Shown in pieces: positions 1 through 3,000 of a DNA stretch of 13,312 nt (position 1 is its first letter; each line of letters starts with the position of its first letter). The DNA comes from a virus (lineage: Duplodnaviria > Heunggongvirae > Uroviricota > Caudoviricetes), in the IMG/VR virus record IMGVR_UViG_2703718873_000005; one strand, 5' to 3'. Position numbers: made by a program.

Positions 1-3000
1 AATGTGGGGAATCGTGTAATTGGTGGGCTTCGTGATGGTGTTCAGGCTGCGGATGCCGCAACCTATGGTCAGTTAGAGCGCTATCGTATTGCAGAAGAGA
101 ATGCCCGTATTCAGGGTGATGCACAGACACTGAAGTCTGCTAATACCTACACAGATAACCGGGTCAGTACCCTGGAGCGTAGTACTAATCAGCAATTCCG
201 TCAGTTACGTGATGAGGTGGAGAAAAACCGTAAACGTGCAGATGCAGGTATTGCAGGAGCAATGGCGATGACTGCCATTCCTGTTGTTGAGGGTAAAACG
301 TACTCCTTTGGTATGGCTGCAAGTAACTACCGTGATGAGCAGGCTATCGCAGCAGGTATGCACTTCCGCACCACTGAAAATTCTGCTGTACGTTTGAATG
401 CTTCATGGGATACCCAGAACGGTTCAGGTGTTGCTGCGGGTATGTCTGTCGGCTGGTAATTTATTTTTTGCGGAGAACGCCAGCCGTGTTGGTTATCGGA
501 AGCGTTCTCCGTCATCCTTCTGTCGCTGAAGACACAGCACAGTCACATTGTTCTTTTTTGTGGTGAGAGTGTGAGTGAAAAAATTCTCCGGTATATGCAG
601 CGTGTGGTGAGAAATTCCCGCAACCCTGAATTTATGAATGAAGTTAAAGACGCCTGCTTTAAAAAGCAGGCGTTTTGTTTTGAGGCACCTGATGGCTTTC
701 TGGTGCTGCGTTCTGTGCTCAGTGCTGATGGTATCCCTTATGTTCTGGTGTTGCTGGGCGTGTGTACGGGGAGTAACAGTGTTGAGCGTTATCTGCCGGA
801 GGTGAAGACATTAACCCGTCTGGCTGGCGGACGTTGGGCTGAATTTCATACGGCAAGGCGGGGATTTATCCGGCTGGGAAAACGTCTGGGCTTTGAGCGA
901 ATGCCGGATGATGAGGATGGCTTCATGGTGTTCAGGATAGCGGTCTGACTGCCACAGTTTTCATCATCGTGTTTAAACCAACATTGCAATTCACATTCTG
1001 ACCCTGCTCCGGCAGGGTTTTTTTATTATCCAGGGGGCCATTATGGGTGGAAGTAAAGGTGGTGGTGATACCAAAGTAAAACCAACAGCAGCGCAAATAG
1101 CACAGGAAGAAGTGGCCTGGAAAGGGTGGCAGGATTACAAAAATATCCTCCGCCCGGCTGAAGATAACTTCATGGAAAAGGTCGATGACCTGAACAGTGA
1201 GCAGCAGTACGACAATATTGCTGGCACGACAAATCTGGGGTATCAAAAACAGTTTGGCGAAGCGCGGAAGGAGCTGGCAAGTAATCTCACTCGGTCCGGT
1301 GTTGACCCGTCCAGTGGTCGCTTTAACGCGGTAATGAATGCGAACCAGAGTGATCAGGTAACCGGGCAGATTGACACAACCACACGGGGGCAGGTATCGC
1401 AGGCAGATAAGTATGTTGCCGGGCTACAGGATGTTGCTGCTCTCGGTTCTGGTCAGAAGGCGGATGCGTTACAGAGTTTTAACTCTCTGGCAGACAGCAG
1501 TCTGGCAAAAGCTAAATCGGATGCACAGGCGGCGTTTACGAAACAGCAGGGGCGAGCCTCTCTTGTTGGCGCTGGTCTGGGTGCGGCAGGTGCATATGCG
1601 ATGCATAAGGCTGGCGGTAGCGGAGGAAGTGGCGGTGCTAAAACACCTGGCACTGGCGCTAATGCCATTCAGCATCAGGCTCAGAACTGGAGACTGTGAT
1701 TATGGAGTACGGTAAATACGAAACACTTGCGAGATACGGTTATACCGGAGCAGCCCGCCCTCAGGGGGACTGGCAGACATCCGCAGCGCTGACCCGCCAG
1801 CAATACGACGACTGGCGCACCAGATATTTACCCCGTGTAGCAAGGCTGGCTGACCTTGGGGAGAACAACAGTCTGATGAATCCACAGCTTGCACGGGTGG
1901 GAGGCCTTGCCACTTCCAGTCTCCGTACAGCGCAGATGGCGCAGGATAACCAGATGGCGAGATACGGGGTAAGCCGCCCGGATAATCCCGACAGTAATAC
2001 GCTGGGGTTACGTAATGCCCTGGCAATAGCAGGTGCGAAAAATGGTATCCGTGAAGCCGAACAGGATCGCCAGATGAATATTCTGACGGGGGCTTCTGCA
2101 CCGGCAAGACAGAAACTGAGTGTTGGCGGACAACTGGTGGCAGCGTAAGGGGGCAATATGGGATACGGTTTACTGGATATTGCAAATCAGTCGCGGCGTG
2201 AGGCATTACAGGGAATAAGTGACGCAGACAGACGACGTACAGAGATTGAGGCATCAAATAAACAACTGGCTGCTCAACAGAAAGCTCAGAAAAAACAGAA
2301 TATCGGTACGGGCATTGGTACGGGGGCCACTATCGGGGCGACTGTTGGTTCAGCAGTACCGGTAGTGGGGACAGCCGTCGGCGCTGTTGCTGGTGCAGTA
2401 ATTGGCGGCATTGCAGGCGCTTTGTTTTAAGGAGTGGTGAATGAGCGGATTTGCACAGGGGTTACTTGCCGGATTCAGCACTGTTGACCAGGCAATGACC
2501 CGTCGTAAGGAGCTTGGTTTGCGAGAAGCACAGCTTGCTCAGCAACAGAAAAATAACGAGCGCGATTTTGAATTTGCGCAGTCTCAGTTTGAACATAATA
2601 AAGACGTTGATCAGCGGAACTTTGATTACAGAGCCAAAGTTGATGACCGCAATTACACACTGCAGGAAAGGGAGTTTAACGCCAACCAGAATTACCGGAA
2701 TGCGTCGCTGGGGATGGAACAGCAACGACTCCAGTTGCAGAAATACAACCAGCGACGGCTTGAGTATAACGATATGCTGGCGCGCGATCAGCCTGTGATG
2801 GCGGCGCTGGGAAAAGCGATTGATGCGGGTGACCATGATGCGGCTTCTCATCTGTTCGGTAAATTATCGGACGCCAATCCGCTTAAGATGATGTCAACGG
2901 TAGGCTATGCTGCGAAAGCGGGTCAGGCCGTGAACAACCTGCAGAAAATCTTTGATGATAAGCCGGACAGGGCGATTGCTTCGCTGAATACCCCGGAAAA

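Follow-up and report, generated by a model that had tools for sequence, protein, structure and literature searches.

The open reading frame (ORF) at positions 2158 to 2430 (+ strand) of the window, by which we mean the whole 13,312-nucleotide stretch of phage DNA that was analysed, encodes a 90-aa protein that is probably (at roughly 60%) a stand-alone membrane-insertion subunit of the DNA ejectosome, resembling the C-terminus of P22 gp7. The protein is the orthologue of phi24B gp49, matches PHROG 594 (phrog_594, E 3.5e-42 in a PHROG profile search) and is labelled 'bacteriocin' in databases. Most likely, that name is wrong and the protein is a stand-alone form of a known kind, a gp7-like ejection protein.

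Translation of the ORF bears out the original prediction of a 90-aa protein at this place, and the ORF is a real, conserved gene under purifying selection, with a dN/dS of 0.14–0.21 for the E. coli variants compared. It is preceded by a Shine-Dalgarno-like AGGGGG (positions 2148 to 2153, + strand; sequence taaGGGGGcaatATG), which starts on the final base of the upstream 150-aa gene's stop codon and whose GGGGG run ends 4 nt before the ATG. The gene is spaced 9–10 nt from each of its flanking genes. No promoter-like sites were found in positions 400–4000, and no terminator was found between the 150-, 90- and 421-aa genes.

The window corresponds to the late operon of a Stx prophage of the short-tailed kind (Traversvirus, 933W/phi24B type) and is 99.9–100% identical to such prophages. 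The 90-aa gene was found in 186 of 186 matching phage records, and approximately 8% of complete E. coli genomes carry it. It occupies a fixed slot in a module of six genes, all on the + strand and ordered 125-218-150-90-421-2805 aa. The first, a 125-aa gene (571–948; PHROG 610), encodes a product that was not detected in phi24B virions. It is followed by the genes for a 218-aa virion protein with a Gly-rich C-terminal stretch of its own (1043–1699; phi24B gp51, PHROG 611) and for the 150-aa upstream partner of the 90-aa protein, also a virion protein (1696–2148; phi24B gp50, PHROG 596). Downstream lie the genes for a 421-aa virion protein (2441–3706; phi24B gp48, PHROG 601) and a 2805-aa polyvalent protein with LPD5, LPD1, MuF_C and LPD38 domains (3737–12154; phi24B gp47), whose true start codon probably lies slightly further downstream than 3737. 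Of 33 diverged IMG/VR loci, 32 retain this order, which ends in a giant gene, and so does a prophage of Vibrio splendidus, with identities of 22–58%; the module occurs in prophages of four genera (E. coli, Yersinia, Aeromonas and Vibrio). The 90-aa family comprises 507 clusters at 50% identity, nearly all of 76–100 aa. A homologue search with the 421-aa protein returned only close E. coli relatives, and an NCBIfam search gave nothing useful.

The 90-aa protein is sharply divided in composition, with 15 charged residues in positions 1–46 and none in positions 47–90. The first part (2158–2295, + strand) begins with an invariant MGYGL[LI]D and continues, according to alignments and AlphaFold2, as a long polar, charged helix. 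It had been described as a charged amphipathic N-terminus; the charge is there, while the amphipathic character did not hold up, as the maximum hydrophobic moment is equalled in 19–41% of shuffles. For the other end of the protein, the predicted composition was found: 36 of the 40 C-terminal residues are G, A, V, I or T, and there are eight GxxxG pairs, a number reached (at least eight) in 1 of 20,000 shuffles of the 44 residues from 47 to 90. The pairs fall into two ladders. The first, G52-G56-G60-G64 (2311–2349, + strand), is evident from residue spacing and conservation. It is separated by a turn or linker, S65-AVPVV-70 (2350–2367, + strand), from the second, G71-75-79-83-87, which runs into the hydrophobic end ...GALF (2368–2427, + strand) and forms the most hydrophobic segment of the protein. 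The mean Kyte-Doolittle score over 19 residues exceeds 1.6 in windows within residues ~59–90, with a maximum of 1.95, and is lower, at ~1.1, for the first ladder.

These features are shared by the family. Among 149 representatives with mutual identity of at most 50%, conservation is 96% for G52, 100% for G56, 99% for G75, 100% for G79 and 98% for G83, and the uncharged C-terminal run has a family median of 37 residues, compared with 44 in the 90-aa protein of the window. The linker region varies in length among relatives and contains a 'GGP' turn in most of them, and a proline is found within the last 30 residues of 144 of the 149. The glycine zipper of the original prediction is therefore retained but not its single membrane helix: judged from sequence, the C-terminus looks like a hairpin of two short zipper helices with a conserved GGP-type turn. 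Each arm is only ~14–18 residues long, which is little for spanning a full bilayer.

An AlphaFold2 monomer model built from the 149 sequences had a pLDDT of 68.5 (54 with 26 sequences). It places a helix at residues 3–55, with pLDDT of 77–86 for residues 1–40; this N-terminal helix is the only confident part, and the zipper region is of low confidence (pLDDT 49–64). Foldseek found no match to the model in BFVD or the PDB. A PDB sequence search with the family profile and P22 gp7 returned nothing significant, the best matches (E 0.23) being a tape-measure protein and a Dot/Icm OmpA-family protein.

Profile comparisons connect the family to the C-terminus of P22 gp7. Seventeen of 26 family members match the P22_gp7 profile (PF25688) at E<0.1, the lowest E being 1.2e-6, and the matches span positions ~147–230 of the 230-position profile. 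One member reaches 28.2 bits against a cut-off of 28; the matches come from relatives, as the 90-aa protein of the window itself has none at E≤0.1. In hhalign, the family aligns to gp7 residues 188–229 (...PWGAAIGGGIGLLGSLF) with a probability of 93% and E 3e-7. None of 200 shuffles of the gp7 C-terminus attained the real score of 39.4 (shuffles, 14.4 ± 1.9). However, scores similar to that of P22_gp7 are obtained with generic glycine-zipper families (YMGG, C19orf12, LeoB), so the likeness could reflect a shared membrane-hairpin module rather than specific descent.

The remainder of gp7 may be represented by neighbouring genes. The N-terminus of the 218-aa protein weakly resembles that of mature P22 gp7 (hhalign 62%, E 7e-5). 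Furthermore, the 150-aa protein is fused to the 90-aa family in some phages, and one such natural fusion from the same module (P0292, 209 aa) consists of a 150-aa-type domain and a 90-aa-type C-terminus (hhalign 95.4%, E 1.8e-8; hmmsearch E 5e-12). Together, the 150-aa and 90-aa proteins look like a split gp7-type ejection protein. BLASTP of the window proteins against P22 gp7, gp20 and gp14 gave nothing significant, and hhalign detected no similarity between the 421-aa family and gp20 or between the 150- and 125-aa families and gp14.

Zipper segments of the same type are found in other phage proteins. PHROG profiles of tape-measure proteins and of tail-associated lysins, both of which enter the envelope of the host, align to residues 18–88 of the 90-aa protein with E values of 1e-9 to 1e-4, and the same motif is present in a 151-aa 'tape measure' fragment and in chain g of PDB 9ki1. 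It should also be noted that a nearly identical zipper ends a 294-aa protein in an unrelated locus (L081).

Published virion proteomics provide a further line of evidence. The proteins gp47, gp48, gp50 and gp51 are present at ~20–40 copies per phi24B virion and are missing from the cryo-EM model; gp48, the orthologue of the 421-aa protein, accounts for ~30 copies and is unresolved by cryo-EM (bioRxiv 10.64898/2026.04.10.717836). High abundance combined with absence from the cryo-EM density points to internal or ejection proteins, and gp47 was proposed to be an ejection protein by the phi24B authors (bioRxiv 10.64898/2026.04.10.717836). In the same data set, gp49 has 13 counts in all, 6 of them from the batch digest, and the proteome of the purified virions lists the gp49 peptide EALQGISDADR (bioRxiv 10.64898/2026.04.10.717836), which corresponds to residues 15–25 of the 90-aa protein. 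The sole ground for setting gp49 aside was its annotation as a 'bacteriocin'. The 90-aa protein yields no more than four useful tryptic peptides, its signal is equal to that of the adaptor gp62, a genuine 12-copy tail protein, and the authors' own normalisation gives ~6–11 copies per virion. These values point weakly to a location in the virion.

The gp49 signal is nevertheless low, equal to that of Lom and Bor. Both are outer-membrane proteins, which we take to be plausible contaminants of virion preparations. The phi24B authors treated them as contaminants (bioRxiv 10.64898/2026.04.10.717836). A protein that sits in a membrane and is no part of the virion could likewise co-purify, and we regard as unlikely, but worth serious consideration, that the 90-aa protein belongs to the membrane of the producing cell and that its trace in virions is membrane contamination. 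There, it could be an inner-membrane-anchored factor for the assembly or loading of internal proteins, a modulator of lysis timing or an agent of superinfection exclusion. The strongly hydrophobic C-terminal tail could insert spontaneously, and the product of the first gene in the module, the 125-aa gene, also appears not to be a virion component. On the other hand, the genes on either side of the 90-aa gene encode abundant internal virion proteins, to one of which it is joined by fusion in some phages, and its product resembles the C-terminus of P22 gp7, for which packaging and ejection are established. The lysis cassette of a related phage is complete and lies elsewhere, and the gp49 signal, taken per detectable peptide, compares with that of the genuine 12-copy tail protein.

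We favour an ejection protein acting as follows. In short-tailed Stx phages of the 933W/phi24B type, the 90-aa protein would be a small protein inside the virion, an 'ejection' or 'pilot' protein, made late from one operon with four other internal proteins and packaged at low copy number, roughly 6–12 per virion. Release of the tail needle on the host surface would start the process, and the 90-aa protein would be expelled with, or just before, the 150-, 218-, 421- and 2805-aa proteins. Its uncharged C-terminal two-zipper hairpin may then oligomerise and become inserted in the host envelope. If P22 gp7 and T7 gp14 are taken as models, insertion would take place at the virion-proximal, outer-membrane end, and there the protein would form or anchor a channel passing the DNA and the giant polyvalent protein. 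The polar N-terminal helix and the MGYGLLD tip would dock the protein to its partners, most likely the 150-aa protein. The original prediction of a membrane-puncturing component within the operon fits the phage context, the module of virion proteins, the likeness to the gp7 C-terminus and the virion peptide; the puncturing itself, that is, insertion and an oligomeric pore, along with packaging in the capsid, ejection and the target membrane, is what we infer.

Glycine zippers bring helices tightly together in soluble assemblies as well. The T7 ejection proteins are known to form soluble assemblies until they are ejected (PMC8954989). The 90-aa protein could accordingly be internal to the virion without ever entering a membrane. 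Its zippers would then pack helices inside the capsid, one possible site being a core or plug that includes the portal barrel or the giant protein. The shortness of the zipper arms would suit such a role. However, uninterrupted runs of 37–44 uncharged residues with Kyte-Doolittle values up to 1.95 are typical of membrane segments, and the equivalent segments of tape-measure proteins and tail lysins belong to proteins that reach host membranes. We consider purely soluble packing to be quite improbable.

A holin-like factor or a small toxin had also been suggested for the 90-aa protein, as would befit a small protein with a hydrophobic glycine-zipper segment. Neither suggestion survived. The canonical S, R, Rz/Rz1 cassette is complete ~21 kb upstream in a related phage, and the 90-aa gene is not beside an endolysin or spanin gene. 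Holins typically have a charged C-terminal tail, whereas the charge in this protein is N-terminal and its C-terminus is uncharged and hydrophobic to the end. In addition, the gene is part of a long late operon of structural genes, lacks a promoter of its own and varies together with virion genes from genus to genus. It is thus very unlikely that the protein is a holin, antiholin or small membrane toxin. Least credible of all is the RefSeq/GenBank annotation as a class II (double-glycine leader) bacteriocin: the propagated name, a Gly/Ala-rich hydrophobic composition in common with class IIc bacteriocins and a weak, sub-threshold Bacteriocin_IIc match (PF10439; 17.3 bits against a cut-off of 27.1, with 13 of 26 relatives at E<0.1) are confined in the last case to the Gly-rich part of the protein, and are set against an N-terminus that has no double-glycine leader (the first GG is at 83–84) and consists of the invariant MGYGLLD and a 45-residue conserved helix, a window and related loci that contain no immunity gene, C39-peptidase ABC exporter or accessory gene, and a position within a phage structural (virion) operon in four genera.

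The 'bacteriocin' label is systematically wrong, and it has already caused gp49 to be discarded from a virion proteome as a contaminant. Reading the protein as a candidate ejectosome subunit corrects an annotation that has spread over Escherichia, Yersinia, Aeromonas and Vibrio. Short-tailed Stx phages carry Shiga-toxin genes from one E. coli to another, and the candidate offers an 85-residue, easily tested handle on the mechanism of injection. Tentatively, one may go further: the 150-aa and 90-aa proteins could be a naturally split gp7-type ejection protein, the 85-aa helix-plus-zipper could be a minimal podovirus ejectosome pore subunit that opens the envelope for DNA and a 2,800-residue polyvalent effector, and the zipper could be a cassette swapped horizontally among unrelated phage delivery proteins.

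Several known systems share parts of this design. Bacterial glycine-zipper hairpins (Gly-zipper_YMGG, Gly-zipper_Omp, Rick_17kDa 2TM and the LeoB paddle of Eleos) likewise consist of two short GxxxG helices and a tight turn. The likeness is limited to the hairpin and the preceding helix, and the glycine-zipper Pfam matches of the 90-aa protein are sub-threshold or partial; unlike the bacterial proteins, it has no signal peptide or lipobox and no OmpA or GTPase domain, and it is found in a phage-structural context. An outer-membrane lipoprotein (Gly-zipper_Omp/YMGG, SlyB/Pcp-like) was rejected on scores of 18.5 bits against a cut-off of 25 and 13.6 against 28.9, and on a polar N-terminus with no hydrophobic signal segment and no Cys. 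The dynamin-like defence protein LeoB of Eleos was also rejected, as only positions 402–472 of its 568-position profile match and the GTPase architecture is absent. The zipper segments of tape-measure proteins and lysins lie within 700–1900-aa proteins of long-tailed phages, whereas here the segment is a free-standing podovirus gene. T7 gp14-type outer-membrane pore proteins are, similarly, small, hydrophobic, alpha-helical members of a three-part ejectosome, and they leave the virion first and become inserted in the outer membrane of the host (PMC8954989). This likeness is one of type, and T7 gp14 is larger (~200 aa with 4–5 predicted helices, against 90 aa).

The closest counterpart is P22 gp7 (PF25688, with homologues in Sf6, HK620 and CUS-3). 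Like the 90-aa protein, gp7 is a podovirus protein whose gene stands among those for other internal proteins of a short-tailed phage, just upstream of the genes for a mid-size and a large one. The C-terminal 45–80 residues of gp7 are, as in the 90-aa family, a polar helix and a GxxxG hairpin, with ...G(L/I)L(G/A)SLF as the last residues of gp7. Low copy number would also be common to the two; P22 injects ~12 copies of gp7 (PMC8402733), and gp7 has been proposed to build the virion-proximal section of the DNA conduit (PMC10461980; PMC13622523). The two differ in length (229 aa for gp7) and in overall architecture: gp7, at ~230 aa, has an N-terminal domain of 150 residues and a 20-aa leader cleaved by OpdA, both lacking in the 90-aa protein. 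The large partner also differs, being a 2805-aa polyvalent protein here and the 609-aa gp16 in P22. The N-terminal part of gp7 seemingly comes from separate genes in this module, those for the 150-aa and 218-aa proteins, which suggests that gp7-type ejection proteins are perhaps modular, built from an N-domain and a detachable zipper.

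A prophage in E. coli JNEC-KY171 matches the window with 100% identity and Escherichia phage phiSTEC1589-Stx1c with 99.9%; for phi24B and other short-tailed Stx phages of the Traversvirus (933W) type, identity is about 95%. The 90-aa ORF (2158–2430, + strand; translation MGYGLLDIANQSRREALQGISDADRRRTEIEASNKQLAAQQKAQKKQNIGTGIGTGATIGATVGSAVPVVGTAVGAVAGAVIGGIAGALF) is preceded by a GGGGG Shine-Dalgarno run 4 nt 5' of its ATG. A dN/dS of 0.14–0.21 among E. coli variants marks it as a genuine gene maintained by purifying selection. As originally noted, the C-terminus is glycine-rich with GxxxG spacing: G, A, V, I and T account for 36 of the final 40 residues, and eight GxxxG pairs are arranged as two ladders (G52-56-60-64 and G71-75-79-83-87) with SAVPVV between them. 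When the C-terminal 44 residues were shuffled 20,000 times, just one shuffle had as many GxxxG pairs. Kyte-Doolittle hydropathy, averaged over 19 residues, stays above 1.6 across approximately residues 59–90 (maximum 1.95). The N-terminus had been described as charged and amphipathic; it is charged (15 charged residues within 1–46, none within 47–90) but not detectably amphipathic, as its hydrophobic moment showed no excess over chance in a shuffle comparison.

The gene belongs to a six-gene module, all on the + strand with junctions that are 9–10 nt or overlapping. The first gene encodes 125 aa (571–948), followed by genes for 218 aa (1043–1699) and 150 aa (1696–2148) upstream of the 90-aa gene, and for 421 aa (2441–3706) and a giant polyvalent protein of 2805 aa (3737–12154; domains LPD5, LPD1, MuF_C and LPD38) downstream. 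No promoter-like sites were found in window 400–4000, nor any terminator-like hairpins between the 150-, 90- and 421-aa genes. The longest giant ORF has a terminator-like hairpin with a T-run (3739–3758, +) inside its first 22 nt, which makes the annotated ATG near 3776 the probable true start. A second such hairpin lies between the 125- and 218-aa genes (1000–1019, +). Outside the module, window 4–459 (+) encodes the last 151 aa of a predicted trimeric-autotransporter adhesin, possibly of Eib type, which has a YadA-like membrane anchor (PF03895, E 1.4e-10) and is carried as cargo. In this slot, other Traversvirus genomes have lom and a hok/MokW gene, and the PQ600364 label for its counterpart, 'terminase large subunit', looks wrong. 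Past the giant gene (12155–13312), GC falls from ~0.55 to 0.40 and the ORFs, all short, have no Pfam matches; the stretch probably represents cargo or the prophage end.

An exhaustive profile search for the 90-aa family returned 507 clusters (50% identity) at E≤1e-3, which with few exceptions are free-standing proteins of 76–100 aa. Relatives with 40–60% identity occur in Yersinia, Aeromonas and Vibrio prophages, almost all labelled "bacteriocin"; record names for the 90-aa product itself include "bacteriocin", "hypothetical" and, once, "N4-family major capsid protein". Across 149 representatives, an N-terminal M-(G/S/A)-Y-G-L motif is followed by a ~45-residue polar helix and the C-terminal pattern xGxGAxxGxxxG...GGPxGAxIGAxxGxLAxxLF, with conservation of at least 96% at G52, G56, G75, G79 and G83, a Pro-containing turn in 144, a median uncharged run of 37 residues, and a hydrophobic or aromatic last residue. 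The turn is the main site of length variation. AlphaFold2, using the 149-sequence alignment, predicts a confident long helix from residue 3 to ~45 (pLDDT 77–86) and, at low confidence, a helix-loop-helix in the zipper region (pLDDT 49–64).

Of 33 diverged IMG/VR loci, 32 keep the gene order of the module, as does a Vibrio splendidus prophage, with the 90-aa homologue immediately after the 150-aa homologue and immediately before the 421-aa homologue. In one metagenomic locus (L093, 2481–3110), a 209-aa natural fusion, P0292, joins a 150-aa-type domain to a 90-aa-type helix-zipper (hhalign 95.4%, E 1.8e-8; hmmsearch E 5e-12; family profile E 8e-11) and occupies the same slot, between the 218-aa and 421-aa homologues. 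This fusion argues that the 150-aa and 90-aa products act together. An IS605-type TnpB gene is inserted directly 3' of P0292. In some database entries (P0176, P0179, P0221) the small protein continues into its 421-aa neighbour; frameshifts or assembly errors are the likely cause, or now and then a genuine fusion, and the entries confirm the adjacency of the two genes. The 218-aa and 150-aa families cross-match weakly (hhalign E 1.7e-4; reciprocal hmmsearch ~1e-5) and are probably distant paralogues. Both share an N-terminal Q(W/Y)xxYxxxxxPxE motif that resembles the mature N-terminus of P22 gp7. On an unrelated phage contig (L081, 4260–5144), a 294-aa protein, encoded upstream of the gene for a 1509-aa protein, ends in a zipper near-identical to that of the window (GATVGSAVPVVGTAIGAVAGAVIGGLAGAF), which suggests that the cassette may be exchanged horizontally between delivery proteins.

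The closest known parallel is P22 gp7, which is injected in about 12 copies (PMC8402733). Neither K+ release nor DNA entry occurs without it, and it is believed to make up the conduit's virion-proximal part (PMC10461980). A 2026 in-situ study reports that gp7*, gp20 and gp16 assemble one after another at the tail hub to build a trans-envelope channel (PMC13622523), and a review groups gp7 with T7 gp14 outer-membrane pore proteins (PMC8954989). PF25688 ("Bacteriophage P22 DNA ejection protein gp7") was matched by 17 of 26 relatives at E<0.1 (best E 1.2e-6; one relative scored 28.2 bits against a cut-off of 28), always over the final ~80 of 230 profile positions. Aligned by hhalign (93% probability, E 3e-7), the family zipper ("...GGPWGAAIGAGVGLLASLF" at the C-terminal end of the relatives) pairs with gp7 residues 188–229 ("...SAIGGGASGAIAGAGLAKLIGSSTPWGAAIGGGIGLLGSLF"). 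The real score was 39.4, compared to 14.4 ± 1.9 for shuffles of the gp7 C-terminus, and none of 200 came near. The mature gp7 N-terminus weakly resembles that of the 218-aa family (62%, E 7e-5). The 90-aa protein itself has no PF25688 match, the generic glycine-zipper models YMGG, C19orf12 and LeoB paddle score like PF25688, and PHROG profiles of tape-measure proteins and tail lysins align with residues 18–88. Therefore, the helix-plus-zipper may not derive strictly from gp7 but be a module for membrane entry that is widely shared. Residues 13–84 also match positions 402–472 of the PADLOC profile for LeoB (E 1.2e-8; window 2158–2427), a dynamin-like protein of the Eleos defence system, presumably in its membrane paddle/hairpin; we rejected LeoB family membership, as only this module is in common.

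The most economical reading, to which we give a probability of roughly 60%, is that the 90-aa protein is a small internal virion protein of 933W-type podoviruses and gives their ejectosome its membrane-inserting hairpin. With its 150-aa partner it would act as a split gp7-like unit, alongside the 218-aa, 421-aa and giant proteins. The originally suggested membrane-puncturing role fits the synteny, fusion and gp7 resemblance; by analogy, the protein would be ejected, oligomerise and insert into a target membrane.

Cryo-EM and proteomics of CsCl-purified phi24B virions were reported in a 2026 preprint (10.64898/2026.04.10.717836). There, gp51, gp50, gp48 and gp47, which are orthologous to the 218-aa, 150-aa, 421-aa and giant proteins respectively, were estimated at 20–40 copies per virion, none of the four was visible in the reconstruction, and gp47 was proposed as an encapsidated ejection protein. 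The 90-aa orthologue, listed as "gp49 E. coli bacteriocin", had 13 counts overall, 6 of them from the batch digest, with EALQGISDADR among its peptides, and was placed among probable contaminants "based on functional annotation" (10.64898/2026.04.10.717836). Since its last 44 residues lack K or R, the 90-aa protein yields only four useful tryptic peptides. The gp49 signal equals that of the adaptor gp62, a genuine 12-copy protein (10.64898/2026.04.10.717836); the authors' normalisation gives about 6 copies, or about 11 counting the digestible part only. It is this low-level peptide detection that points to virion association. However, an equal signal came from Lom and Bor, which belong to the outer membrane and might be carried along with debris (10.64898/2026.04.10.717836). 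This would suit contamination of virion preparations by a membrane protein of the producer cell (assembly factor, lysis modulator or exclusion factor), a reading that we consider unlikely. Less likely still is a packing element inside the virion that stays out of membranes altogether. The 125-aa product, unlike the other five, was undetected in the phi24B virion proteome, so it may have a role in assembly. The annotation of Aeromonas phage phiARM81mr calls each of the four neighbours a "putative virion structural protein" and names the small gene "bacteriocin".

The originally suggested holin or small toxin is very improbable, as the related phage AU5Stx1 has its holin S, lysozyme R and Rz/Rz1 genes some 21 kb further upstream and the charge polarity of the 90-aa protein is opposite to that of holins. 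Least credible is a class II bacteriocin: the Pfam match is below threshold, the protein has no double-glycine leader, and export or immunity genes were not found in the window or in related loci. The widely spread "bacteriocin" label, almost certainly wrong, has already biased one experimental study, and its recognition as such is new.

Podovirus ejection proteins and glycine-zipper membrane hairpins are both already known. What is new is that an 85-aa version stands alone, separate from the gp7-type N-domain, and is associated with a giant polyvalent protein.
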